Shown: one piece after another, positions 29,683 to 50,621 of the stretch
Numbering within the stretch: the first letter of the stretch is position 1
How the letters are laid out: every line of letters starts with the position of its first letter
Assembly (NCBI GenBank): GCA_050247355.1
Contig: JBFWUK010000010.1
Location: 4,751 to 68,750, forward strand
Origin: Vicinamibacterales bacterium
Lineage (GTDB): Bacteria; Acidobacteriota; Vicinamibacteria; Vicinamibacterales; UBA2999
Reading direction: 5' to 3'
DNA: 64,000 nt
Made by a program: the position numbers and the translations under genes
Notes under the pieces: generated by a model
Databases searched by the model: none
The model's input: the letters and a program-made list of their open reading frames with translations, nothing else
Told to the model about the DNA's origin: nothing

Positions 29683-29698
29683 TGTGAGCGCGCTCACT
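29683..29698. promoter_or_regulatory. CRP-type palindrome TGTGAgcgcgcTCACT
   Basis: The core GTGAGCGCGCTCAC is a perfect 14-nt palindrome. Lies in the divergent region between genes starting at 29571 (minus) and 29741 (plus). Confidence 0.55.
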
Positions 29699-37530: not shown

Positions 37531-38241
37531 ATGGTGCGAATCAGCATGACGATGGCGCGGTCTGCCGGTCGTGTTCTCATGGCCGCGCTGATCCTGGGGT
37601 GGGCCACCACCCTGGCGTCGGCGTCTCCACCTCAATCTCCCGGCGCACAGTTCGCGGCCCATCGAGATTCGCCGCCGCGCGGTGGCGCCGAAGCGTCCGA
37701 CGCTTCAACAGAGCCAGCCGAGTCCGCCGCCGGTTCCCCGGCCTCCGAGTGGATGCTCGGTGCCGGTCGGGCGGCGAGCGTCGAACTGTTTCACTCGCGC
37801 ACCGGCATCCGCTACGCGGTCCAGACCGTGTCGTGGGCGCGCGACCTGACGAGGGACCTTGGGCCGCGCTCGCTGCGGGGGCGGCTGGCCTGGACGATTG
37901 AGCTAATGCCGCTGTTGGTCCAGCTGGCGCCAAGCCGCGTCTACGCCATTGGCATTGCGCCCGTCGGCCTGCGCTGGAACCTGGTACCGCGGCGACACTG
38001 GTCGGCCTTCACGGAATTGTCCGGCGGCTTTCTCGGCAGTTCGGCACCCCTGCCCGACGGCCTGGCGCGATTCAACTTCACGGCTCATTGGGCAACCGGC
38101 GTCAGGGTGCCTGCCGGCGATGGGCAGGCGCTGGTCCTGGCCTATCGCCTTCAGCACATCTCGAACGGCAATCGCCTGCCCACGAACCCGGGTATCAACA
38201 GTCACGTCGTCTTTGCCGGCTGGTCAGTGGTCGACCGGTGA
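37531..38241 (+). CDS. Acyloxyacyl hydrolase (PagL-like lipid A deacylase family) outer-membrane protein
   Basis: Signal peptide, then a C-terminal YRLQHISNGN...NPGINSHVVFAGWS block characteristic of the family. Confidence 0.7.
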   Translation: MVRISMTMARSAGRVLMAALILGWATTLASASPPQSPGAQFAAHRDSPPRGGAEASDASTEPAESAAGSPASEWMLGAGRAASVELFHSRTGIRYAVQTVSWARDLTRDLGPRSLRGRLAWTIELMPLLVQLAPSRVYAIGIAPVGLRWNLVPRRHWSAFTELSGGFLGSSAPLPDGLARFNFTAHWATGVRVPAGDGQALVLAYRLQHISNGNRLPTNPGINSHVVFAGWSVVDR

Positions 38242-38269: not shown

Positions 38270-38953
38270 TTAGACCACCGCGCGCAGCCGAACGGGGTCT
38301 TTGATGCGGATGTTCTGCCGGCTGCTCTCGACCAGGCCTCGTTGTTTCAGGTCCTGCAAGACGATATTCACCGTCTCTCGAGCCAGGCCAACAAGGTTGC
38401 CGAGGTCGCCCTGGTTGAGGCGAATCGGAATCAAGATCCCGTCGTCGTCCTTGACTCCGTAGTCCGCGGCGAGGTCGAGCAGGGTGTTCGCGATGCGCGC
38501 GTGCGCGCTCTTGAACAGCAACTCCTCGACCCGGGTGCGGAGGCGGCGCAGGCGCATTCCCATCAACTTGGTAATCTGGTAACCGAGCGCGGGCGACTGC
38601 TGGATCATCTGCAGCAGCATGTCGCGATTGAGCGCGCAGAGGACGGTGTCTTCGACCACTTCGGCGACATGATCGCGCGGCGCCTCGTCGAGGATCGCCA
38701 GTTCGCCGAAGATGTCGCCCGGATAGAGCAGCGCCAGGATGGTGTCTTGTTCGGCGCCGCCGGTGGAGATCTTCACGACGCCGGTCTTGAGCAGGAAAAT
38801 CTGGTCGCTGGGGTCACCCGGCAGATAGATGCGCTGGCCGCGCTTCAACTCGAGCATCCGCGCCATCTTCTCGACCGCATGCTTCTGCCCGTCGGTCAGG
38901 GCATCCATCAATCGAAAACGCTGCAAGTACCAGAGTTTGGTGTGGGCGGCCAT
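38270..38953 (-). CDS. Crp/Fnr-family transcriptional regulator
   Basis: cNMP-binding-type barrel (GDIFGELAIL) and C-terminal HTH GDLGNLVGLARETVNIVLQDLKQRGLV, with a CRP-like R-E pair in the recognition helix. No N-terminal Cys cluster. Confidence 0.9.
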   Translation of the reverse strand: MAAHTKLWYLQRFRLMDALTDGQKHAVEKMARMLELKRGQRIYLPGDPSDQIFLLKTGVVKISTGGAEQDTILALLYPGDIFGELAILDEAPRDHVAEVVEDTVLCALNRDMLLQMIQQSPALGYQITKLMGMRLRRLRTRVEELLFKSAHARIANTLLDLAADYGVKDDDGILIPIRLNQGDLGNLVGLARETVNIVLQDLKQRGLVESSRQNIRIKDPVRLRAVV

Positions 38954-38971: not shown

Positions 38972-39226
38972 CTACTCCGGCGGCCGGTCCAATCGGCCAG
39001 CAAGATCCGCCATGCGGGGAATGCCGTACAGCGCCGGACCGCCATCAATCACCACCGCCGGCGTGGCGATCAGGCCGTAGCGGTTGGCCTCGCCGAGATG
39101 GTGAGCGACGTCCAATTCGGTGACCGCGACGTCCGTCCTGTCCGCCGCCAGCTGCCTGACGACCTGCCGCGCTTCGGGACAGCCGACGCAGTGCTCGCTG
39201 TAGAAGAACTCCACCCGGTGAGTCAT
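38972..39226 (-). CDS. Small thioredoxin/glutaredoxin-like protein
   Basis: MTHRVEFFYSEHCVGCPEA (CxxC), then IATPAVVIDG. 84 aa. Lies immediately upstream of the crp-family gene on the same strand. Confidence 0.75.
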   Translation of the reverse strand: MTHRVEFFYSEHCVGCPEARQVVRQLAADRTDVAVTELDVAHHLGEANRYGLIATPAVVIDGGPALYGIPRMADLAGRLDRPPE

Positions 39227-39258
39227 TGCCTCACGATAGGCGCTCGCCGCGGCCATCG

Positions 39259-39274
39259 CTGTGACGCTCCTCAC
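39259..39274. promoter_or_regulatory. CRP-type palindrome gcTGTGAcgctccTCACTgt
   Basis: 9/10 match. Lies in the divergent region between the trx-like/crp operon (minus) and the oxidoreductase gene at 39338 (plus). Confidence 0.55.
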
Positions 39275-39337
39275 TGTTCGGGACGGTTGACCGCGCGCGC
39301 GGCGGAAGGCCGGTGCGGGCGCGGTTATGCTCGTGGC

Positions 39338-40864
39338 ATGCAGTCACTGTCTGCCATCGACCGCCTTGTCGAGCCGCTCGACGCAGCCAACCAGGCGCTG
39401 CTGCGGGCCGTTCATCCCCCTGAGTGGCAGAACCCCGAGCCGCATGATGTCTACGATCTGGTCGTGCTCGGAGGCGGGACCGCCGGCCTGGTCAGCGCGG
39501 TTGGTGCGGCCGGTCTTGGCGCGCGGGTGGCCCTGGTCGAGCGGGCCTTGCTCGGCGGCGACTGCCTCAACACTGGTTGTGTCCCGTCAAAGGCGCTGAT
39601 TCGCTCGGCCCGCGCCATCGCCGATGCGCGCCGCGCCGCCCGGCTTGGCGTCCGGGTCGGCTCGGTCGAGCCCGACTTCGCCGCGATCATGGGTCGAATG
39701 CGAGAGCGGCGCGCGTGTATCAGCGCTAACGACTCGGCCCAGCGGCTTCAGCGCGCGGGCGTGGATGTCTTCCTCGGCAGCGGAGCATTTACCAGCGGGC
39801 GCACGCTCGATGTCGCGGGCTTGACCCTGAAGTTCAACCGCGCCGTCATCGCCACCGGCGCCCGCCCGGTTGCCCCACCGGTGCCCGGCCTCGACGGCGT
39901 GCCGTTCCTCACGAACGAAACCGTGTTCGGGCTCACCGACCTGCCGCCGCGGCTGGCGGTGATTGGGGTGGGACCGATTGGCTGCGAGTTGGCGCAGGCG
40001 TTTGCACGATTCGGCAGCGAAGTCACGCTGCTCGGCCGGGAATTGCACGTGCTGCCAAACGAAGATGCTGACGCGGCCGCGATCGTGCAACGCCAACTCC
40101 TGGACGATGGCGTGCGGTTGGAATTGGGCGTTGAACTGATCGACGCCAGGCGCGACCAGGCCGGTGTGCGGATTCGCTACGAACGGCGCGGTATGACCGC
40201 GGCCGGAGAGGTGACGGCCGATCACGTGCTCCTGGCCGCGGGCCGGGCGCCGAATGTGGAAGGCCTCGGCCTGGATCAGGCCGGCGTCCGCGTCTCAGCG
40301 GCGGGCGTCGTCGTGAACGATCGCATGCAGACGTCTAGCCGGCGCATCTACGCCGCCGGGGACGTGTGTTCGAGGCACAAGTTTACCCACGCCGCCGACG
40401 CCCAGGCGCGCATCGTCATTCAGAACGCGCTGTTCTACGGGCGCAAGCGTGCCAGCCGGCTGGTCGTGCCGTGGTGTACCTACACTGATCCAGAGATCGC
40501 GCACGTCGGGATGTACGAGGCCGAGGCCCGCCAGCAAGGACTCGACGTCAAGACCATCACCATTCACCTGGCGGACGTGGATCGGGCGCTGCTGGACGAC
40601 GAGGCCGAGGGGTTCGTGCGTGTGCACCATGTGGCCGGCCGGCTGGTCGGTTGCACGATCGTCGCGGCGCATGCCGGCGAGTTGATCGGTGAGGCCACCT
40701 ACGTGGTCACGCACGGCGGCACGCTGGCCGACCTGGCGGCGACGATTCACCCCTACCCGACCCAGGCCGAGGCGCTCAAGAAAGCCGGCGACGCCTACCG
40801 CCGGGAATCGCTGACGCCGTCGGTGAAGCGATGGTTCGAACGCTATTTTCGCTGGACTCGCTAA
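39338..40864 (+). CDS. FAD-dependent pyridine nucleotide-disulfide oxidoreductase (mercuric reductase/dihydrolipoamide dehydrogenase-like)
   Basis: Internal ATG at 39338. VVLGGGTAGL, redox-active GGDCLNTGCVPSK, and a second dinucleotide fold IGVGPIGCE. The 971-aa track ORF is an artefactual extension. Confidence 0.9.
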   Translation: MQSLSAIDRLVEPLDAANQALLRAVHPPEWQNPEPHDVYDLVVLGGGTAGLVSAVGAAGLGARVALVERALLGGDCLNTGCVPSKALIRSARAIADARRAARLGVRVGSVEPDFAAIMGRMRERRACISANDSAQRLQRAGVDVFLGSGAFTSGRTLDVAGLTLKFNRAVIATGARPVAPPVPGLDGVPFLTNETVFGLTDLPPRLAVIGVGPIGCELAQAFARFGSEVTLLGRELHVLPNEDADAAAIVQRQLLDDGVRLELGVELIDARRDQAGVRIRYERRGMTAAGEVTADHVLLAAGRAPNVEGLGLDQAGVRVSAAGVVVNDRMQTSSRRIYAAGDVCSRHKFTHAADAQARIVIQNALFYGRKRASRLVVPWCTYTDPEIAHVGMYEAEARQQGLDVKTITIHLADVDRALLDDEAEGFVRVHHVAGRLVGCTIVAAHAGELIGEATYVVTHGGTLADLAATIHPYPTQAEALKKAGDAYRRESLTPSVKRWFERYFRWTR

Positions 40865-41651: not shown

Positions 41652-41667
41652 AGTGAGCTGGCTCACA
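41652..41667. promoter_or_regulatory. CRP-type palindrome ccAGTGAgctggcTCACAgc
   Basis: 9/10 match. Lies in the divergent region between the TVP38 gene (minus) and the ytxJ-like gene (plus), about 80 nt from each start. Confidence 0.55.
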
Positions 41668-41744: not shown

Positions 41745-42116
41745 ATGACTCTGCACCGTCTCACCGATCTCGACCAGCTTGATGCCGCCTTCGCACGTTC
41801 CGCGGCCGCGCCGGTCCTCATCTTCAAGCACAGCCCCACCTGCGGCATCAGCGCCCAGGCCCACGAGGAGGTCGCGAGCCTGGCGGCTGAAACCGGGCTG
41901 CGCGCCGAGGTCTGCCTGGTCATCGTCCAGGAGGATCGCCGGGTCTCGAACGAGATCGCCCGGCGCCTCAATCACCGCCATGCGTCGCCCCAGGTCCTGC
42001 TGGTGCAGGGCGGCGTCCTCCAGTGGCATGCCTCGCACTTTCGCGTAACCGGACAGGCCATCAGGGCCGCGCTCGGGCGCACGCAGCCGCCCCGACCAGA
42101 TCTTTTCCACCCGTGA
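41745..42116 (+). CDS. ytxJ: YtxJ-like monothiol thioredoxin-fold protein (DUF2847)
   Basis: PVLIFKHSPTCGISAQA with the single-Cys TCxIS motif, then SPQVLLVQGG. 123 aa. Confidence 0.75.
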   Translation: MTLHRLTDLDQLDAAFARSAAAPVLIFKHSPTCGISAQAHEEVASLAAETGLRAEVCLVIVQEDRRVSNEIARRLNHRHASPQVLLVQGGVLQWHASHFRVTGQAIRAALGRTQPPRPDLFHP

Positions 42117-43372
42117 CCGATCGCCGCACCGCGCATGTCAGCGCCGTGATGCTGCTGATGACGGCGGCCTTCATGCTCGCGCGTACCGGGCGCGATGCCT
42201 GGTATTTCCAGCAGGGCGGCATTCAGTCACTGCCGTTCGCGTATCTGGGCATGGCGCTGCTCGCACTGCCGATGGCGGCGTTGCTGCTGTCCATGGTGCG
42301 GGTCATGGGCATCCGCCGGACCCGCGTGGTCGCGGTCGCGGCGATGACGGCCGTGCTCGCCGCCGCGGGGCTGGCCGGCCGTCCGGGCGGCGGTCCGGCC
42401 ATGACGCTGTTCTTCGTGCTCGTGCCGGTGGTATTCGGCGGCCTGTTCTCGCTGTCGTGGCTGCTGGCCGGCGAGATCATCGGACGCGATTCGCCAGATC
42501 TGGTGCGGGCATTCAGCCGCACCGCCGCAGCTTCGATCCTGGGCGGACTGTTCGGCGCCGGCCTGGCCCGCGGCTTGGCCCCGTGGCTGGCGCCGCGCGG
42601 ACTGTTGCTGATCAGCGCCGCGACCCTGGCAGCAGCGCTGCTGGCCATCGCCCTGACCCACCGACGCTTTCCGCCGATTGAGGTGGCGGCGCCCACTGGC
42701 CCGATTGTCGCCCGGCCGGCCTTTGCCACGGCGCTCGCTGAGCCGTACGTCCGCTTGCTGCTGTCGATTGCCGCACTGGCCGCCTTCTCCGGTGTCTTGA
42801 TCGAGTTCCTGTTCTATCAGGCCGCGTCGTCGTGCCCGGGCGGTCCAGCCGAACGGATCGCGTTGTTCGCGAACTTCTATATCGGTCTCGGCGTGGCGGG
42901 GTTGGCTATCCAGTGGTTCGTCGCCGCCCGCCTGCAGGCCGCCATCGGCCTGGCCGGCTCACTCCTGATACTGCCAGGCGCCATCGTCGGGCTGATGCCG
43001 GCGGTCATCGGCTTCGCATCCGGGATCATGCCCGCGGTATTGCGGCTGACCGAGGGCGGGCTGAAGGCGTCGCTGCATCGTTCGAGCTGGGAGCAGACCT
43101 ATCTGGCCATTGGTCCCGGCTGCCGCACCGAGGCAAAGCTGCTGGTCGACGGCGTGGGCACCCGGCTGGCCGAGGGCCTTGGTGCCGCACTCCTCTTCGT
43201 GGGACCGGCGGCGGTTCGGGACGGATCTGGTTCAAGTGCCTTCATCCCGGCGTTGGTCGTGGCCGGCGTGGCGTGGCTGGTTCTGACACTGCGGGCGCGA
43301 CGCTACCTCGGGTCGGGCGAAGGCATGGTCACGGACCCGGCAGAGTGCTACGCACGCATGCCCGATTCCTGA
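42113..43372 (+). CDS. TLC/NTT-like (ATP:ADP antiporter family-like) MFS-type transporter, paralog 1
   Basis: GTGA overlap with ytxJ. Polytopic protein. The block TLFFVLVPVVFGGLFSLSWLLAGEIIGRDSPDLVRAFSRTAAASILGG parallels the TLC signature region seen in paralog 2. Confidence 0.5.
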   Translation: MTDRRTAHVSAVMLLMTAAFMLARTGRDAWYFQQGGIQSLPFAYLGMALLALPMAALLLSMVRVMGIRRTRVVAVAAMTAVLAAAGLAGRPGGGPAMTLFFVLVPVVFGGLFSLSWLLAGEIIGRDSPDLVRAFSRTAAASILGGLFGAGLARGLAPWLAPRGLLLISAATLAAALLAIALTHRRFPPIEVAAPTGPIVARPAFATALAEPYVRLLLSIAALAAFSGVLIEFLFYQAASSCPGGPAERIALFANFYIGLGVAGLAIQWFVAARLQAAIGLAGSLLILPGAIVGLMPAVIGFASGIMPAVLRLTEGGLKASLHRSSWEQTYLAIGPGCRTEAKLLVDGVGTRLAEGLGAALLFVGPAAVRDGSGSSAFIPALVVAGVAWLVLTLRARRYLGSGEGMVTDPAECYARMPDS

Positions 43373-43422
43373 CCGGTCGTGGCGACCCTCGGTACGAGGG
43401 TCTCGGAACGCTGAATGTCGGC

Positions 43423-43438
43423 TGTGACCCCGATCACA
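43423..43438. promoter_or_regulatory. CRP-type palindrome, perfect: gcTGTGAccccgaTCACAgc
   Basis: 10/10 match, with the same GC flanks as the 37444 site. Lies 85-100 nt upstream of the ATG at 43523. Confidence 0.6.
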
Positions 43439-43522
43439 GCTTGATGAATGAGCACCGCAAAGCGGCCGGTCATGAGTAATTAGTCGCGGCGTCCTGCATC
43501 CAAGTCGGGAGAAGGCATCACG

Positions 43523-44854
43523 ATGAACCCGACGATTTACCTATCCAAGTTGTTCAAGGCCTGCCTCGATTGCCGGACTGGTGAGCGGGTGTTCTCGGCC
43601 GCCATGTCGGTGTGCTTCTTCCTGGTGATTTCCACCTTCTGGATCTTGAAGCCGCTCAAGAAGACCGCGTTCATTGGCCAGTTCGACGAGGCGGGCGTCA
43701 ACCTGCTGTCGTGGCACCTCTCGGCGTCCGAGGCCGAGCTGGTCGCCAAGATTCTCAACATGGTGGTCGCGTTCGCCGCGGTCGTGGCGTTTACCTGGTT
43801 GGCGCGGCGCTTTCGACGCCAGCAGCTCGTCCACATCTTCTCGATTTTCTTCATTGCCGGTTTCATGGCCTACAGCCTCATTCTTGGCCGGCCGTCGGAC
43901 GCCACGGTGTGGAGCTTCTATCTGTTCGGCGATCTCTTCAGCACGCTCATGGTCGCGACGTTCTTCGCGTTTCTGAACGACAGTGTGTCGCCAGACCAGG
44001 CCAAGCGGCTGTACGGCATCGTCGGACTCGGCGGGGTCGTCGGTGGGGTCGCCGGCAGCACGTTTGTCGGTGTCTGGGTGGATGCCGTGACTCCGGCGGG
44101 CTGGCTCTGGGTTTGCGTCGGCGTGACGCTCGGCATCATGAGTGCGGCAGAGATCGCCGGCCGGTCGGCACCGCCCGCCATCGCCGTTGAACCGGTGACC
44201 ACCACGGCCCCGGAGCCGGGAGGGACAGCCTTCGCCGGCGCTCAGCTGGTCTTCCGGTCGAAGTATCTCCTGTCGATCGTGGCCATCGTCGGCTTGTATG
44301 AGGTGGCCTCGACCATCACCGATTTCATGTTCACGAGCACAGTCACTCATCACCTGAGCGGACCTGATATCGGCCGCCAGTTTTCGCGCGTCTTCGCGCT
44401 GACCAACTGGGTTTCGATGCTGGTTCAGTTCTTCCTGACGAGCCTGATCATGACTCGAGTGGGAATGGGGGCCGCCTTGATGGTGTTGCCGGCGGCCCTG
44501 GTGACCGGGTCGGCCGCGTTCCTGGTGCTGCCGATTCTGTGGACCGGGAGCCTGTTGAACACCGCCGACAACGGCTTCAGTTACTCCATCAATCAATCGG
44601 CCAAAGAGGCGCTGTACGTGCCGGTACCGCGTCACGAGAAATACCAGGCGAAGGCTTTCATCGACATCTTCGTGCAACGCGTGGCCAAGGCGCTGGCGGT
44701 GGTCGTCAGCCTGGTGGTGTCGTCGACGTTGACTGACTTCGACAGCGTTCGTTGGCTGGCGCTCGTCAACGTCGTGATCGTCGCGGCCTGGTTCGGTGCC
44801 GCTCGCTATGCCGGGCGGGCGTTTCAGCCCAAATGCGACGAGGCCGTCGCATGA
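43523..44854 (+). CDS. TLC/NTT-like (ATP:ADP antiporter family-like) MFS-type transporter, paralog 2
   Basis: SD GGGAGAAGG. FFLVISTFWILKPLKKTAF and VWSFYLFGDLFSTLMVATFFAFLNDSVSPDQAKRLYGIVGLGGVVGG resemble by eye the TLC blocks (iLRdlKDtL; WsfalFYvmaELWgsvvlsvLFWqfANeit..eAkRfYplfg). Visibly lower GC than its neighbours. Confidence 0.55.
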   Translation: MNPTIYLSKLFKACLDCRTGERVFSAAMSVCFFLVISTFWILKPLKKTAFIGQFDEAGVNLLSWHLSASEAELVAKILNMVVAFAAVVAFTWLARRFRRQQLVHIFSIFFIAGFMAYSLILGRPSDATVWSFYLFGDLFSTLMVATFFAFLNDSVSPDQAKRLYGIVGLGGVVGGVAGSTFVGVWVDAVTPAGWLWVCVGVTLGIMSAAEIAGRSAPPAIAVEPVTTTAPEPGGTAFAGAQLVFRSKYLLSIVAIVGLYEVASTITDFMFTSTVTHHLSGPDIGRQFSRVFALTNWVSMLVQFFLTSLIMTRVGMGAALMVLPAALVTGSAAFLVLPILWTGSLLNTADNGFSYSINQSAKEALYVPVPRHEKYQAKAFIDIFVQRVAKALAVVVSLVVSSTLTDFDSVRWLALVNVVIVAAWFGAARYAGRAFQPKCDEAVA

Positions 44855-46071
44855 GGCGCATCATGGTGGTGGTGGCGGTTTGGGCTGGTCTCGCGGCCGG
44901 GCTCGGCGCCCAGACTCCCGCCGAAGCCCCACTCCAGCCACCGGCAGACAGCCGCGCGGCGCTGAGCGACCAGGCGCGGTTAGCGAAGGCCGCCACCCTG
45001 ACGCCCGAGGTGTTATCCACCTGGGAGCGCCGCGTGCTTGCGCTCGAGGCGCGGAACTTCCCGCGCCATCTGTTTGTTGATGAGTACAACGGTGTGCGAA
45101 CGCTGATCGGCGGCATGCCATCGGGATCCGGTGTCGCCGCCGGCGTCGGCTACATGGCCGGAGCGACCGGCGAACGGCTTCGATTCAACGTCGGCGCGCG
45201 GTGGTCGATCGAGCACTACCGGCAGCTCGACGCCGAGGCGCTGCGGCCGAGCCGGAGCGGCCGCCCGTTTCAGGTCCGGATACACGGTCGCTACGCGGAC
45301 TACCGCGCGCTGGATCTGTTCGGACTGGGCCACCGTTCGTCGCCCGATGCGAAAGCCGCGTATCGCTTTGAAAGCCGCACCGCGTCGGTCAGCGTCTCGC
45401 GATGCGCCGGCCGGCGGATCGCCATCGGCGCCGAGAGTGGCGTGCTGAACGGGTCGGTGCGATCTTTCGACGGCGGCCGTGGCCGGTTGCCCGAGCTTCC
45501 CGGCGCGACCCTTCAGCCGACGTTCGTGTTCGGCGGCGGTCATGTGGCGCTGACGCTGAGAGATGGCGCGCTCAGGTTCGCCGGCGTGCGCCTGCGCCTC
45601 GACGCCACGCGATGGGTCGATGTCGACGGCGAGAACTTTGACTTCACACGCCTGGTTGGTGAACTGCAGACCCACCTGCCGCTCGGTGCCCGCAATCGGA
45701 TGCTGGCGCTTCGCCTGCGCACCTCTCACTCGATCGCCGACACCGGCGCGAGCGTGCCGTTCTATCTCATGGAGACACTGGGCGGGGCGACGAGCGTTCG
45801 AGGCTTCGATGAGCGTCGGTTCCGCGACACCCACAATGTGGTGGCCAACGCGGAGTATCGGTGGGAGGTCTGGAATTACGCCGACCTGGCGATCTTCGGC
45901 GATGTTGGCCGCGTCTTCTCGCGCGCCGATCGCTTTGCCTGGTCCGGATTTGCCGCCGGTTACGGCATCGGACTCCGATCGGTGCTGCCAGGAGGCGGCG
46001 GGTTCCGGATCGACGTGGCCCGCGGACGGGAAGGTTTCAGATTGCATATCGGCGGGGGGGCGGCGTTCTGA
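44851..46071 (+). CDS. Outer-membrane beta-barrel protein (bacterial surface antigen/Omp85-like C-terminal domain)
   Basis: ATGA overlap with the transporter gene. Signal peptide MRRIMVVVAVWAGLAAGLGA. The C-terminus has alternating beta-strand text ending in F (GFRLHIGGGAAF). Confidence 0.65.
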   Translation: MRRIMVVVAVWAGLAAGLGAQTPAEAPLQPPADSRAALSDQARLAKAATLTPEVLSTWERRVLALEARNFPRHLFVDEYNGVRTLIGGMPSGSGVAAGVGYMAGATGERLRFNVGARWSIEHYRQLDAEALRPSRSGRPFQVRIHGRYADYRALDLFGLGHRSSPDAKAAYRFESRTASVSVSRCAGRRIAIGAESGVLNGSVRSFDGGRGRLPELPGATLQPTFVFGGGHVALTLRDGALRFAGVRLRLDATRWVDVDGENFDFTRLVGELQTHLPLGARNRMLALRLRTSHSIADTGASVPFYLMETLGGATSVRGFDERRFRDTHNVVANAEYRWEVWNYADLAIFGDVGRVFSRADRFAWSGFAAGYGIGLRSVLPGGGGFRIDVARGREGFRLHIGGGAAF

Positions 46072-47714
46072 TGCGTCGACCATTCGCGGCGATCGTGTTC
46101 GTGGCACTGGCGGCCACCGTCGCCCTGGCGGGCCAGGGCCACCAGCGGCGCTTCTATCCGGACGACCCGCAGTGGGTCGACCGCGACACACACGACGTGC
46201 CGGCGACACCGGCGGCGATCGAGCTGAGCGACCTGTACGACCGCTTCCGCCACATCATCGCGCTGCCGGGCGCGAAGACACCGGGCGAGTCGCGCAACGT
46301 CAACACGCTGGGTGAGGTCCCTGACAGCTCGTGGTACCAGAACCGCCACGCCGCGCAGCGGATGTCGATCGCCGAACTCGTGAGGGGGCCCGACACGACC
46401 GGCGGGCCTGACCTGACCAGTCCGTGGCGGGTGGTCCGCGGCAAGACCCAGGGCTTGACCCCGGGCTTCGACATCCTTGACGGGCGTGGCCATCGCTACG
46501 TCATCAAGCTCGATCCGTTCGACCTGCCTGAGTTGAGTTCGTCGGCTGAGGTCATCAGCACCAAAATCTTCCATGCGCTCGGGTACTACACGCCGGAGAA
46601 CTACATCGTCCTCGTGGATCCCGCCAGGTTGATGATCGAACCAGGCACGCTCGTCGCCGACGAACTGGGTACGAAACGACCGCTGACGCCTGAACGGCTG
46701 GCCGGCCTTTTGCGCGACGCGCCTCGTCGAGCCGACGGACGGATCCGCGTGACCGCCAGCTTGTTCGTCAGCGGGAAGCCAATCGGCCCCTTCCGCTACT
46801 TCGGGACCAGGAGTGACGACCCCAACGACGTGATTCCCCATGAGGATCGGCGGGAGTTGAGAGGCTTGCGGGTGTTCTCGGCGTGGCTGAACCACGACGA
46901 TACGCGTGCCCAGAACACCCTGGATTCGTGGGTTCAGGTGGGCGATGCCCACTACGTCCGGCACCATTTGATCGACTTCGGTTCAACCCTGGGCAGCGGC
47001 AGCATTGAAGCGCAGCTGCCATGGCTGGGATTCGACTACTGGCTGGATCCCGGCCTGCTGAAGCGCAACGCCCTCGGCTTTGGCACCCATGTGCCTGCGT
47101 ATCACCGGGTGCGGTTCCCGTCGTATCCGTCCGTGGGCCGGTTCGAGGCCGAGGCTTACCAGCCCCACGCGTGGAAGAACGACTACCCGAACCCGGCGTT
47201 TGTCCGCATGACCGAACGCGACGCCTTCTGGGCGACCAAGACCCTGATGGCCTTCACGCGTGAAGAATTGGCGGCCATCGTCGCGACCGGGCAGTATACC
47301 GACGCGGCCGCCGAAGCTTACGTGCTGCGTACGCTGGTCAAGCGGCAGCAGAAGACCGGCGCCTACTATCTCGCCCGCTCGAACCCCCTCGACGAATTCA
47401 CGGTGGCTGGCGCCGAGTTCCGGTTCGTCAACCTGGCAGATAAGTACGGCCTGGCCGGCGCCGGAACCCAGTACCACGTGGAATGGTCGACCTACGACGA
47501 CGCGACCGGGGCCTCCGAGTTGCTGGCGGCCGGTGCCATCGTCGACCGTCCACGGTCACAGCTCCCGGAAGTCCCTCTGCCGGTCGGCGCGAGCCGATAC
47601 CTCAAGGTGGTCGTGCGCTCGCTTCACACCGACTTTCCGGCCTGGTCCGCACCAATCGCGGTGTTCCTGCGGACCGTCGGCAACGGCTACGAGGTCGTGG
47701 GCGTTGAGCGCTGA
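46071..47714 (+). CDS. Signal-peptide protein with protein-kinase-like / PI3-PI4-kinase-like catalytic motifs
   Basis: TGATG overlap with the OMP gene. Signal MRRPFAAIVFVALAATVALAG. Motifs in canonical order: RYVIK (K146, 46506-46508), SAEVISTKIF (helix-C-like Glu), WLNHDDTRAQN (HxDxxxxN, 46893-46916) and HHLIDFGSTLG (DFG, 46974-46982). Confidence 0.55.
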   Translation: MRRPFAAIVFVALAATVALAGQGHQRRFYPDDPQWVDRDTHDVPATPAAIELSDLYDRFRHIIALPGAKTPGESRNVNTLGEVPDSSWYQNRHAAQRMSIAELVRGPDTTGGPDLTSPWRVVRGKTQGLTPGFDILDGRGHRYVIKLDPFDLPELSSSAEVISTKIFHALGYYTPENYIVLVDPARLMIEPGTLVADELGTKRPLTPERLAGLLRDAPRRADGRIRVTASLFVSGKPIGPFRYFGTRSDDPNDVIPHEDRRELRGLRVFSAWLNHDDTRAQNTLDSWVQVGDAHYVRHHLIDFGSTLGSGSIEAQLPWLGFDYWLDPGLLKRNALGFGTHVPAYHRVRFPSYPSVGRFEAEAYQPHAWKNDYPNPAFVRMTERDAFWATKTLMAFTREELAAIVATGQYTDAAAEAYVLRTLVKRQQKTGAYYLARSNPLDEFTVAGAEFRFVNLADKYGLAGAGTQYHVEWSTYDDATGASELLAAGAIVDRPRSQLPEVPLPVGASRYLKVVVRSLHTDFPAWSAPIAVFLRTVGNGYEVVGVER

Positions 47715-48867
47715 CGTCGTCCTGCTCGGCATCGGTCACACCAACGCCCATGCGTTGCGGATGTGGCTGAACGCACCCTTGCCGGGCGCCCGACTGACGT
47801 GTGTGTCCAGCCACCAGATGTCTACCTACTCTGGCATGCTGCCGGGAGTGCTGGCCGGCCAATATTCCCGCGAGCACATGGAGATCGACCTGGAGGCGCT
47901 GTGCGCTGCCGCCGGCGCCCACTTGATCGTCGGCGAAGTCAGTGGCCTCGATCGGGCCGGCCGGGCGCTGCAGTTTGCCGACCGCGCGCCGTTGCCCTTC
48001 GACGTGCTGTCAATCGGCATCGGATCAGTTCCCTCGTTCGCGGATGCATCCGTCATCGACGACAGCCGGCTGGTGCCGGTGAAACCAATGCAGACTTTCC
48101 TGGACCGTTTCGACCAACGGCTTCAGCAGGCCGCTCAACGGCGCCGCGGCGCCCCGATCCGTATTTCGGTTGTCGGTGGCGGCGCAAGCGGCGCCGAACT
48201 GGCGCTGTGCCTGCCGCCGTACGTCCAAGCGCGGCTCGGCGACGGTCGAGCGCCCGAGCAGACCGTTGTCAGCAGCGACGACCGGCTGTTGCCGGGCAGC
48301 CTGCCAGGCACCGCGCGGCGGGTCGAGAAGGCGCTGAAACGGCGTGGCGTCAGATTGCTGCTCGGCCGGCGAGCCGCACAGGTGCACAGCGGTCACCTGG
48401 CCTTCGATGACGGGTCGATCATGGAGACGGATGTGATCGTGTGGCTGACGAATGCCACCGCTCCTCCGCTACTGGCCGCCCTCGGCCTGCCAACCGATTC
48501 GCATGGGTTCCTGTTGACGACCGACGCTCTGCAGACGACCGCCGGCGATCCAGTCTTTGCCGTGGGCGATAGCGGGACGATCGCCGGATCGCCGACGCCG
48601 AAGGCGGGCGTGTTCGCGGTCAGGCAGGGGCCGGTGCTTTGGGAGAACATCGGCCGGACGTTGGCCGCCGAACCTCTTCAGCGCTACACGCCGCAACCCG
48701 GGTTCCTGAAGCTCTTGAACACCGGTGACGGCCGCGCCATCGGTGAATGGCGCGGCCTGTCCTTCGAGGGCGCCTGGGCCTGGCGGCTGAAGAACGCCAT
48801 CGACCGTCGATTCGTGCGCCCCTTTCAGGGCTCCCCGGCGGTCGATGCCGGTGGCAGTGCGTCCTGA
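47704..48867 (+). CDS. FAD/NAD(P)-dependent oxidoreductase of the NADH-dehydrogenase-like type found fused to SelD in some bacteria
   Basis: VVLLGIGHTNAHALRMWLNAPLPGARLTCVSSHQMSTYSGMLPGVLAG...FDVLSIGIGS and a second fold VVGGGASGAE. Start uncertain (a TTG at 47704 overlaps the upstream stop). Confidence 0.65.
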   Translation: MSADVVLLGIGHTNAHALRMWLNAPLPGARLTCVSSHQMSTYSGMLPGVLAGQYSREHMEIDLEALCAAAGAHLIVGEVSGLDRAGRALQFADRAPLPFDVLSIGIGSVPSFADASVIDDSRLVPVKPMQTFLDRFDQRLQQAAQRRRGAPIRISVVGGGASGAELALCLPPYVQARLGDGRAPEQTVVSSDDRLLPGSLPGTARRVEKALKRRGVRLLLGRRAAQVHSGHLAFDDGSIMETDVIVWLTNATAPPLLAALGLPTDSHGFLLTTDALQTTAGDPVFAVGDSGTIAGSPTPKAGVFAVRQGPVLWENIGRTLAAEPLQRYTPQPGFLKLLNTGDGRAIGEWRGLSFEGAWAWRLKNAIDRRFVRPFQGSPAVDAGGSAS

Positions 48868-49685: not shown

Positions 49686-50621
49686 GTGAAAAGACTGATG
49701 GCGGCGGCGATCGTGGTGACGGCTACCACCGTAGCAACCTTGGCGCAGGCCGCGCCGATCGTGGCCGAGGTGCGGGCGGCCATCGCAAACAACGACTTCG
49801 CGCGCGGCGACACGGTGCTGGCGGCACACCGCAAGGCCCATGGCGTGACGCCCGAGATGCTGGAAGCGCTCTCGTGGATGGGGCGAGGCACGCTGGCCGC
49901 AAGACGGTTCGAACTGGCGGAGCGGTACGCCACCGAAACCTACCAACTGTCAGCGGAGCTGCTCAAGCGTCGCGAGCTCGATGACGAGCCCCGCCTGCCA
50001 ATCGCCATCGGCGCGGCGATCGAGGTGCTGGCCCAGGCCGAGGCCCAGCGTGGGGCCAGGACCGAGGCCGTGCTCTTTCTCGGCCGCGAGCTGGCCAATT
50101 TCAAGGGCACGTCGATCGAGAAGCGGATTCAAAAAAACATCAACTTGCTCAGCCTCGTCGGGACGCCGGCGCCGGCCATCGAGACCGCCGACCATCTCGG
50201 ACCGCCGCCGCCGGCCGTCGCCAGCCTGACAGGAAAGGTCGTGCTGCTGTTCTTCTGGGCGCACTGGTGTCCCGACTGCAAGGCGGAGGCGCCGATTCTG
50301 GCGCGCCTATCCGATACCTACGCCGCCAAAGGGCTAGTCATCCTCGCGCCGACGCAGCGCTTCGGCTATGTGGCGGGGGGCAAGCCGGCATCGCCGGACG
50401 AGGAAGTGCGCTACATCGACCAGGTGCGCCAGGCGTCCTATCCGGTGCTGGCGGGTCACGCGATTCCGTTGAGCACGACCAACCACATTCGCTACGGCGT
50501 CAGTACCACGCCGACCCTCGTCCTGGTCGATCGGACCGGCATCATCCGGCTGTATCGCCCCGGCGCCATGAGCCACGAGCAACTCGAGCCCCTCGTAAAG
50601 GCACTGCTCGATCCGTCCTGA
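49686..50621 (+). CDS. Secreted helical (TPR-like) domain plus TlpA-family thioredoxin domain protein
   Basis: Signal MKRLMAAAIVVTATTVATLAQA. C-terminal VVLLFFWAHWCPDCKAEAP and TTPTLVLVD. Confidence 0.85.
   Translation: MKRLMAAAIVVTATTVATLAQAAPIVAEVRAAIANNDFARGDTVLAAHRKAHGVTPEMLEALSWMGRGTLAARRFELAERYATETYQLSAELLKRRELDDEPRLPIAIGAAIEVLAQAEAQRGARTEAVLFLGRELANFKGTSIEKRIQKNINLLSLVGTPAPAIETADHLGPPPPAVASLTGKVVLLFFWAHWCPDCKAEAPILARLSDTYAAKGLVILAPTQRFGYVAGGKPASPDEEVRYIDQVRQASYPVLAGHAIPLSTTNHIRYGVSTTPTLVLVDRTGIIRLYRPGAMSHEQLEPLVKALLDPS

Follow-up and report, generated by a model that had tools for sequence, protein, structure and literature searches.

We analyzed a 64,000-nucleotide stretch of a Vicinamibacterales genome (contig JBFWUK010000010.1, positions 4,751 to 68,750; the window) around a gene for a 547-aa protein with a signal peptide and kinase-like motifs. 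This gene is preceded by a gene for an outer-membrane barrel of the Omp85 family and by two genes for polytopic carriers resembling the TLC/NTT family of nucleotide transporters; ytxJ and an oxidoreductase gene lie on either side, all in the same direction (Table 1). The genes are closely packed, as a first-pass annotation of the window had described: ytxJ and the transporter 1 gene have GTGA in common (42113-42116), the transporter 2 and Omp85 genes have ATGA in common (44851-44854), the Omp85 gene meets the 547-aa gene in TGATG (46069-46073), and the flavin adenine dinucleotide (FAD) oxidoreductase gene starts with TTG at 47704, before the preceding TGA stop codon at 47712-47714. A scan for sigma-70 promoters found none and a terminator scan remained at chance level; both were uninformative.

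The results described below identify a widely conserved two-gene envelope module, composed of an Omp85 barrel without POTRA domains and a translationally coupled Sec-exported protein with a complete kinase-like core. Here the module adjoins genes for two TLC/NTT-like carriers, predicted to reside in the inner membrane.

Table 1. Genes, motifs and sites of the locus; positions refer to the window, except in the last row, where they refer to related loci
Feature	Position	Strand	Evidence
ytxJ/BrxC monothiol bacilliredoxin-like gene	41745..42116	+	PF11009 2e-27; TIGR04019 101 bits, above cut-off
Transporter 1, putative divergent TLC/NTT-like polytopic carrier	42113..43372	+	custom profiles, BLASTP
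Transporter 2, TLC/NTT-family carrier	43523..44854	+	PF03219, MFS_1, PDB 9j3j
POTRA-less ('noNterm') Omp85-family 16-stranded outer-membrane barrel	44851..46071	+	PF01103, AlphaFold, Foldseek
547-aa exported kinase-like protein gene	46071..47714	+	AlphaFold, Foldseek, motif conservation
Sec-type signal peptide MRRPFAAIVFVALAATVALA, cleavage before GQ	46071..46130	+	N-terminal hydrophobic segment
RYVIK, beta-3 strand, predicted ATP-anchoring Lys146	46494..46508	+	translation, conservation
Family-specific motif RSDDPNDVIPHEDRRELRG, residues 247-265	46809..46865	+	just before the helix leading into the catalytic loop
Catalytic-loop-like NHDDTRAQN (HxDxxxxN; D277, N282)	46890..46916	+	after predicted helix 266-273, kinase-like
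DFG motif (D302)	46974..46982	+	followed by low-confidence activation-loop-like segment
Pyridine nucleotide-disulfide oxidoreductase (TIGR03169 family)	47704..48867	+	TIGR03169 2.4e-107, 359 bits
Perfect CRP/FNR-type palindrome TGTGACCCCGATCACA	43423..43438	+	85 bp 5' of transporter 2; pattern search
CRP-like site, one mismatch, AGTGAGCTGGCTCACA	41652..41667	+	about 80 bp 5' of ytxJ; pattern search
Crp/Fnr-family regulator, cNMP-binding domain and HTH	38270..38953	-	cNMP_binding 1.4e-19, HTH_Crp_2 5.6e-18, Crp 2.9e-7 (Pfam)
Second kinase-like lipoproteins, 337-367 aa	L082:9344-10444, L092:7882-8985, L093:7966-8979; L094-L173

The conserved two-gene unit

The Omp85-like character proposed for the barrel was borne out by a PF01103 match of 59 bits (cut-off 24; 6.8e-16), by the presence of the loop-6 motif VRGF and by a 16-stranded model; Pfam gave matches to Omp85 and ShlB and to no other domain family. 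The AlphaFold model, with a mean predicted local distance difference test (pLDDT) value of 86.9, is composed of a signal peptide, three short helices (residues 35-75) and 16 strands, and its best Foldseek matches were the barrels of TamA and BamA (template-modelling (TM) score 0.77 to 8us4, TamA). No POTRA domain was found in the model, in which only about 60 residues of short helices separate the signal peptide from the first strand, and the 83 barrel homologues are 280-518 aa long, mostly about 400-450 aa. Because of the missing POTRA domain and the short homologues, the barrel was classified as a 'noNterm' Omp85 protein.

Barrel linkage was analyzed in 80 genome loci, 74 of which had room for an upstream gene. 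In 73 of these 74 loci an Omp85 gene was located directly 5' of the kinase-like gene on the same strand, with a median estimated gap of 18 bp, and the percent identity of the barrel to its window copy rises and falls with that of the kinase-like protein (r = 0.86). No further position of the neighbourhood was conserved among the 80 loci. By record title these belong to Vicinamibacterales, other Acidobacteriota, Terriglobia, Eiseniibacteriota, Krumholzibacteriia, Gemmatimonadota and Calditrichaceae; Acidobacteriota frequently carry the module, which was also seen in genomes labelled Zixibacteria. The conserved unit is the pair formed by the Omp85 gene and the kinase-like gene, to which TLC carriers are a frequent and not an obligatory accessory.

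The genes at the two ends were rejected as parts of a conserved system: ytxJ was present in none of the 80 loci, and a TIGR03169 FAD oxidoreductase gene was found 3' of the module only in the close relatives L001 and L017. For this reason both were placed outside the conserved unit, as lineage-specific passengers.

At least 4430 homologues of the 547-aa protein, all without a name or called 'hypothetical', were found in a collection of 5.8 billion proteins. At the level of 50%-identity clusters the family has 4077 representatives, 1270 of them with E <= 1e-30, and at least 561 stretches in GTDB contigs (one genome per species) encode a relative of the protein.

The signal peptide read earlier in the 547-aa protein is present as its one N-terminal hydrophobic segment; a crude hydropathy scan found one such segment also in the Omp85 protein and at least 10 hydrophobic segments in both transporters. 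Every family member examined has a Sec or a lipoprotein signal. In the Vicinamibacterales members, signals for signal peptidase I (SPase-I) end a few residues before the invariant FYPDDP; a lipobox pattern in these members was considered and rejected, because the cysteines lie within the SPase-I hydrophobic core. In other lineages, the members encoded within extended clusters (e.g. L081, L089) have lipoboxes such as FSGC/S and IVSC/S. The signals indicate an extracytoplasmic location throughout the family.

Several unusual records were noted during these searches. Four long members (P0347, P0401, P0456 and P0384; 848-1158 aa) have a conserved C-terminal extension of 300-600 aa (for example ...QFRMYVTLKPD...DVDYRSS...NGHLTAANSDVRAG...), which gave no Pfam match and resembled neither the barrel nor any other product of the operon. 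Two apparent Omp85-kinase fusions, P0482 (995 aa) and P0478 (1021 aa, MDP7338075.1), which carry database annotation as single BamA/TamA-family proteins, were rejected as fusions because the kinase-like protein's own signal peptide is found internally, after a read-through linker; they are probably barrels read through into the kinase-like gene by a stop-codon or gene-calling artefact. The contigs L057 and L058, which carry the Omp85 barrel and the module, come from metagenome-assembled genomes labelled Acidimicrobiia, a group usually considered single-membraned, suggesting that these contigs are mis-binned or mislabelled.

Fold and conserved residues of the 547-aa protein

The AlphaFold model of the 547-aa protein, obtained with 66 homologues as input (pLDDT 85.6, predicted TM score 0.87), contains a kinase-like domain at about residues 110-435 and a C-terminal beta-sandwich at residues 440-547. 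In the N-lobe, the third of three strands (142-147) ends in K146 and is followed by helix 155-170 with E160. The catalytic region runs from helix 266-273 through NHDDTRAQN and a beta-hairpin to DFG; residues 311-325, where the activation loop would lie, have pLDDT below 50 and are followed by a helical C-lobe. Direct translation placed RYVIK (K146), NHDDTRAQN (274-282) and DFG (302-304) in the canonical order in which the first-pass annotation had read them.

When the model was compared with the PDB by Foldseek, the matches at E <= 0.001 were Fam20 kinases (Fam20C, the casein kinase of the Golgi, and relatives; E 2e-4 to 8e-4, probability 0.97-1.0) and a single other structure, which aligned to the C-terminal beta-sandwich. 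Weaker matches included Fam20A, Helicobacter pylori CtkA (TM 0.47-0.50 on target), PI4KIIα, Rio2 and PINK1. Model and structure comparison, together with the family-wide conservation of the motif residues, point to a protein-kinase-like fold.

The earlier comparison of the catalytic motifs to the PI3/PI4 kinases did not hold at the level of family: PF00454 matched neither the window protein nor any of the 66 homologues at E <= 10. No examined member of the family had a Pfam match to PI3_PI4_kinase, Fam20C (PF06702) or Pkinase, the window protein was matched by no Pfam or NCBIfam model, and searches of all PDB chains with the single sequence and with the 66-sequence profile found no kinase, only chance matches with E > 0.1. 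A weak match of PF20613 HipA_2 to the N-lobe was obtained for 33 of the 66 members (best E 4.8e-4), at 12.6-16.1 bits in three members inspected, below the cut-off of 27; the window protein itself was not matched. The nearest sequence signal is this sub-threshold HipA_2 match, and the nearest structures are Fam20C and CtkA.

Among the 66 homologues (53-81% identity), K146, E154, H275, D276, D277, N282, D302, F303 and G304 were invariant. In 150 diverse representatives taken from the 50%-identity clusters, K146 was found in 88%, an acidic residue at position 160 in 88%, D277 in 87%, N282 in 91%, H298 in 97%, D302 in 96%, F303 in 86% and G304 in 77%. That about 87-96% of such diverse members keep the catalytic Lys, Glu, HxDxxxxN and DFG argues for selection for catalysis. 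The family-specific motif RSDDPNDVIPHEDRRELRG (R247-x-DDPND-x-IPH-x-x-RRE) was conserved above the canonical catalytic residues in the same representatives: D250, D253, H257 and R261 were present in 100%, R247 and R260 in 97%. Its conservation suggests that the motif may provide extra substrate or metal ligands.

Carrier genes, their linkage and regulation

Transporter 2 matched PF03219 TLC with 50.6 bits (cut-off 21) and also MFS_1 in Pfam. Its score against the TIGR00769 ATP:ADP antiporter model, 54.5 bits, is far below the cut-off of 387, and it represents a distant short clade (about 440 aa) outside full-length TIGR00769 membership. Among PDB chains it matched chloroplast NTT1 (9j3j, 6.6e-11) and a second ADP,ATP carrier (9j3n, 8e-7). 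The clade keeps 57-62% identity across phyla, and its members are named 'NTP/NDP exchange transporter' or 'Npt1/Npt2 family' in the source records. Transporter 1 had no Pfam or NCBIfam match; a custom profile of the TLC-HEAT transporter domain matched it over its full length (E 1.9e-39), and matches were also obtained with the transporter-2 family profile (E 1.2e-9) and by BLASTP with transporter 2 (22% identity, 2e-8). These comparisons suggest a divergent TLC/NTT-like paralogue, and a 34%-identical homologue is located directly 5' of Omp85 in locus L047. The TLC resemblance that had been claimed for both membrane proteins holds at the Pfam threshold for transporter 2; for transporter 1 it is suggested by the custom profiles.

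Of the 80 kinase-like loci, 32 have a TLC-like gene at a distance of at most 8 kb, which is upstream on the same strand in 3, upstream divergent in 10, downstream on the same strand in 7 and downstream convergent in 12. TLC-HEAT or TLC-HEAT-cNMP-binding fusions occurred in 25 loci. The reverse search started from 11 transporter-2 orthologues, chosen solely for their long contigs. Six, all from other lineages (L081, L087-L091), had Omp85 and a 556-573-aa kinase-like homologue on the same strand within 9 kb; the homologues of L088, L090 and L091 matched the family profile by hmmsearch at 1e-121 to 1e-146, and that of L081 showed 41% identity by BLASTP. Three (L082, L092, L093) lay directly beside a different kinase-like lipoprotein of 337-367 aa, and two (L084/L085, L086) had neither kinase-like family nearby. 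By our own estimate, which assumes few carrier copies per genome, adjacency by chance would be expected at about 1% per locus. The fullest cluster (L089, L090) contains genes for PAP2, Omp85, the kinase-like protein, a lipoprotein metallophosphoesterase, TLC, TLC-HEAT, a cNMP-binding protein and a response regulator. Of the gene linkage first proposed for the whole operon, the pairing of barrel and kinase-like gene is near-universal and the linkage to transporters recurs across phyla; that of ytxJ and the FAD oxidoreductase is not conserved.

The second kinase-like lipoproteins have the motifs KWK, NxxPRKExAAYxxQKLFLxPEDYVVP, HxDxxxxNFL and (I/V)DNG, and their catalytic region gave weak Pfam matches to PI3_PI4_kinase (1.8e-4) and Fam20C (0.016). 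A metagenome scan yielded 80 loci of this family, 36 of them with a carrier of the transporter-2 TLC clade, mostly 64-81% identical; in 33 of these the carrier gene is downstream on the same strand, usually after a gap of 25-41 bp. In 58 second-family loci the downstream sequence extends for 300 bp or more; the carrier followed directly in 25 of them. A carrier-less subclade is flanked by PhoX and a Y_phosphatase3 protein, and the family has no accompanying barrel. In a profile-profile comparison the two kinase-like families aligned only from the catalytic loop to DFG, with a probability of 0.4%; since this is not significant, they were treated as separate. Carriers of a single clade are thus found again and again beside two different families of exported kinase-like proteins.

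The perfect CRP-type site reported in the 150-bp gap before transporter 2 (43373-43522) is present. The pattern TGTGA-N6-TCACA occurred six times in the window with at most one mismatch (positions 29683, 35820, 37444, 39260, 41652 and 43423; two perfect), against 0.95 expected, and none of 100 shuffled sequences reached six. In the ~80%-identical locus L001, the transporter-2 orthologue is preceded at about 100 bp by a perfect site whose spacer differs; no further perfect site was found in 1.36 Mb of loci. The module in this genome appears to be under a CRP/FNR-type operator, and the Crp/Fnr-family protein encoded at 38270-38953 is a candidate regulator of the nearby sites. cNMP-binding proteins or fusions recur in the related clusters of other lineages; here a cNMP-type transcription factor seems to replace them.

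Boxes stand 5' of a gene for a PagL-like lipid A deacylase (37531-38241), of ytxJ and of transporter 2, and also 5' of the thioredoxin-like gene or the pyridine-nucleotide oxidoreductase gene; together with the Crp-family regulator they look like a local regulon of envelope and redox genes. Thiol and redox genes are unusually dense around the module (38972-40864, 41745-42116, 47704-48867 and 49686-50621), with products comprising a thioredoxin-like protein, a Pyr_redox_2/dimerisation oxidoreductase, YtxJ, the TIGR03169 oxidoreductase and a redoxin/AhpC-like protein.

Other neighbours were observed in the related loci. Genes for phosphoenolpyruvate (PEP) carboxykinase (7 loci), a His_Phos_1 phosphatase (7 loci) and enolase (3 loci) lie near the module (e.g. 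L026:6003-7607, L007:5241-6554), and genes for proteins resembling pyruvate phosphate dikinase, for pyruvate kinase and for acetate kinase lie near carrier orthologues (e.g. L086, L088, L093). Inheritance of the gene order, or a connection with the supply of nucleotide, could account for these ATP- or PEP-linked neighbours and for the PPK2 gene described below. Seven Vicinamibacterales loci encode, at most 8 kb from the module, a histidine kinase (PAS, HisKA, HATPase_c; e.g. L005:14922-16724, minus strand); its N-terminal domain has a PI3/4-kinase-like DRHxxN...IDF motif (DTDRHGANVLY...FMIDFTRAF).

Proposed function and comparison with known systems

We propose that the locus encodes an extracytoplasmic phosphotransfer module to which TLC carriers feed nucleotide, a reading that we consider possible and somewhat short of probable. 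The site of action of the kinase-like enzyme would be extracytoplasmic, either periplasmic or at the outer membrane, and a dedicated barrel would deliver, anchor, display or translocate the enzyme. The enzyme would move phosphate, or another nucleotide-derived group, from a nucleotide donor onto an envelope substrate, and the carriers would supply the donor by passing cytoplasmic ATP out and periplasmic ADP or AMP in. In other phyla, exported phosphoesterases (PAP2, the lipoprotein metallophosphoesterase) may reverse the modification or recycle the nucleotide, and the TLC-HEAT carrier, the cNMP-binding protein and the response regulator may gate a costly nucleotide export; in this window, cyclic nucleotides would exert their control on transcription, by way of the Crp-family regulator encoded nearby and its boxes. 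The extension of this proposal to free-living diderm bacteria in general, which would export ATP or another nucleotide through a dedicated TLC/NTT clade and so fuel exported kinase-fold enzymes of both the barrel-paired family and the stand-alone lipoproteins, is doubtful at present.

The first-pass annotation had suggested a self-contained system for extracytoplasmic phosphorylation. This suggestion is partly supported, and none of the three points that bear on it most directly refuted it, namely the kinase-like fold predicted for the exported protein, with motif residues conserved among homologues, the TLC matches of the transporters and the conservation of linkage in related genomes. It had to be corrected in three respects: the family, which is not PI3/PI4, the conserved core, which is Omp85 plus the kinase-like gene, and the function, which is putative.

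Several points weigh against the proposed phosphotransfer module. We know of no demonstration of nucleotide export for the TLC/NTT family, and ATP in the periplasm should leak out through porins. About 60% of the loci have no TLC gene within 8 kb, so that any dependence on a carrier would be in trans or facultative. The Foldseek E-values of about 1e-4 are modest and the TM-scores low (0.3-0.5), and the comparison is for this reason read as a fold assignment and not as family membership; no Pfam kinase model reached threshold for the 547-aa protein or its relatives. The motif RxDDPNDxIPHxxRRE is not a canonical kinase element, and the chemistry may therefore differ from simple phosphotransfer. 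Kinase activity, the precise location of the exported protein, and the direction and substrate of transport are properties that we infer from sequence.

Two further points against the module, the direction of transport and the nature of several neighbours, would fit a role in scavenging of phosphate or nucleotides. Every characterised NTT carrier imports its substrate (PMC5381601). The lipoprotein metallophosphoesterase and PAP2 are among the neighbours, PhoX and the tyrosine-phosphatase-family protein flank the second kinase-like family, a 5'-nucleotidase fragment is found in L086, and a two-domain PPK2 gene lies directly 3' of the kinase-like gene in 4 loci (including L004:9674-11209). The TLC carriers would then import external nucleotides, the barrel and the kinase-fold protein would capture or process nucleotides or polyphosphate at the surface, and the phosphoesterases would complete the locus. 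Scavenging seems unlikely to us, however, as it gives no obvious role to a fully conserved kinase catalytic core and leaves unexplained the presence of the same carrier clade beside two exported kinase-like families; moreover, Omp85 barrels are not known as solute channels, and the operator in the window is of the CRP/FNR type in a redox-gene context, with no recognisable phosphate-starvation context.

The layout of an Omp85-superfamily barrel gene beside a gene for a Sec-dependent cargo is that of type Vb secretion, and the barrel could move the kinase-like protein to the surface or into the medium, where it would act on other cells or host material with their own ATP, the transporter adjacency being unrelated. 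The structural neighbour CtkA, deposited as 'Helicobacter pylori proinflammatory kinase', is secreted. In Leptospira, too, genes for noNterm Omp85 proteins have downstream neighbours that encode lipoproteins, for which surface exposure has been proposed (PMC11358297). Effector export of this kind is nevertheless improbable: the barrel lacks POTRA, the cargo lacks a two-partner secretion (TPS) domain or beta-helix, no small immunity-type gene recurs in the neighbourhood and no sign of polymorphism was seen, the co-varying identities resemble those of a vertically inherited housekeeping module, and the TLC, cNMP-binding and response-regulator neighbours as well as the barrel-less second family would be left without explanation. 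The absence of a periplasmic domain in the barrel could also be explained if the 547-aa protein were a non-catalytic periplasmic subunit which replaces POTRA and aids the barrel in outer-membrane biogenesis or lipid homeostasis, with carriers that are regulatory or coincidental. The most invariant residues of the family indeed lie outside the canonical kinase motifs, and K146, D277 or N282 is missing in roughly 10% of representatives. We give little credence to such a pseudoenzyme: the retention of the catalytic set described above speaks against it, and a scaffold would hardly account for the recurrent proximity of nucleotide carriers and phosphoesterases.

The periplasm is generally regarded as a compartment without ATP, and the known modifications of the envelope draw on donors that are lipid-linked or otherwise not nucleotides. 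The repeated location of an intact exported kinase core beside homologues of ATP/ADP carriers calls this view into question. An exported kinase-fold enzyme with its barrel, often accompanied by ATP/ADP-carrier-like transporters, in a soil bacterium and hundreds of other species suggests an undescribed ATP-dependent chemistry outside the cytoplasm. Several of the lineages that carry the module (Acidobacteriota, Zixibacteria, Gemmatimonadota, Calditrichaceae, Eiseniibacteriota, Krumholzibacteriia) are abundant in soil and sediment, which gives it ecological relevance. The module joins three questions: the role of NTT-like and NTT-HEAT-cNBD proteins in free-living bacteria, left open by Major et al. 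2017 (PMC5381601), the role of POTRA-less Omp85 proteins, and the nature of a nameless family of more than 4000 clusters. If true, the phosphotransfer reading would provide a first function for the NTT-like proteins of free-living bacteria and for a noNterm Omp85 subgroup.

In the literature we found no description of the kinase-like family, of the Omp85-kinase pairing, of an association of carriers with exported kinases or of a periplasmic kinase fed with ATP, in agreement with the earlier remark that no described system of this composition was known to its author. The folds are known; the system as a whole appears to be new, with a function that is proposed.

Among known systems, two-partner secretion (type Vb; TpsB/TpsA, FhaC/FHA) also couples the co-transcribed genes of a 16-stranded Omp85-superfamily barrel and of a Sec-exported partner. 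The barrel described here has no POTRA domains, which separates it from the BamA, TamA and TpsB subfamilies alike, and its partner is predicted to be a globular kinase-fold enzyme, which some phyla encode as a lipoprotein; the model of the 547-aa protein contains neither a TPS domain nor a beta-helix, and Pfam gave no TPS or haemagglutinin match. The noNterm Omp85 proteins (Heinz & Lithgow 2014, PMC4104836), a class without an assigned function, are likewise POTRA-less barrels whose genes precede one for an exported protein or lipoprotein, as in Leptospira LIC12252/12254/12258 (PMC11358297). The partner in Leptospira is an adhesin-like lipoprotein, whereas here it is kinase-like and nucleotide carriers are nearby.

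The carriers are related to the TLC/NTT family, transporter 2 above the Pfam TLC threshold, and related loci have the NTT-HEAT and NTT-HEAT-cNBD architectures which were described as widespread and uncharacterised in free-living bacteria (Major et al. 2017, PMC5381601); that work does not mention that their genes lie near those for exported kinase-like proteins and an Omp85 barrel. Unlike the canonical carriers, the proteins described here are about 420-440 aa long, score far below the TIGR00769 cut-off and belong to free-living bacteria.

The arrangement of HxDxxxxN and DFG is shared with the atypical kinases of the HipA/CtkA and PI3/PI4 types, and CtkA and PI4KIIα were among the Foldseek matches. 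The 547-aa protein differs from these kinases in its signal peptide, its long conserved N-terminal extension, the RxDDPNDxIPHxxRRE motif and the C-terminal beta-sandwich, and all sequence matches to them were below the family thresholds.

The best structural matches to the 547-aa protein were Fam20C and the secretory-pathway kinases. Luminal kinases of the Fam20 type rely on a carrier that brings ATP across the organelle membrane, and the likeness to the system proposed here is that a kinase residing where ATP is scarce is paired with a nucleotide carrier in the membrane. The differences are considerable: no PF06702 match, low TM-scores, an unrelated carrier family, and the bacterial periplasm in place of the Golgi or endoplasmic reticulum. 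By analogy, the eukaryotic secretory pathway would nevertheless be the closest counterpart, and the module, if the phosphotransfer reading is true, would be the bacterial equivalent of the Golgi luminal kinases with their ATP carrier.

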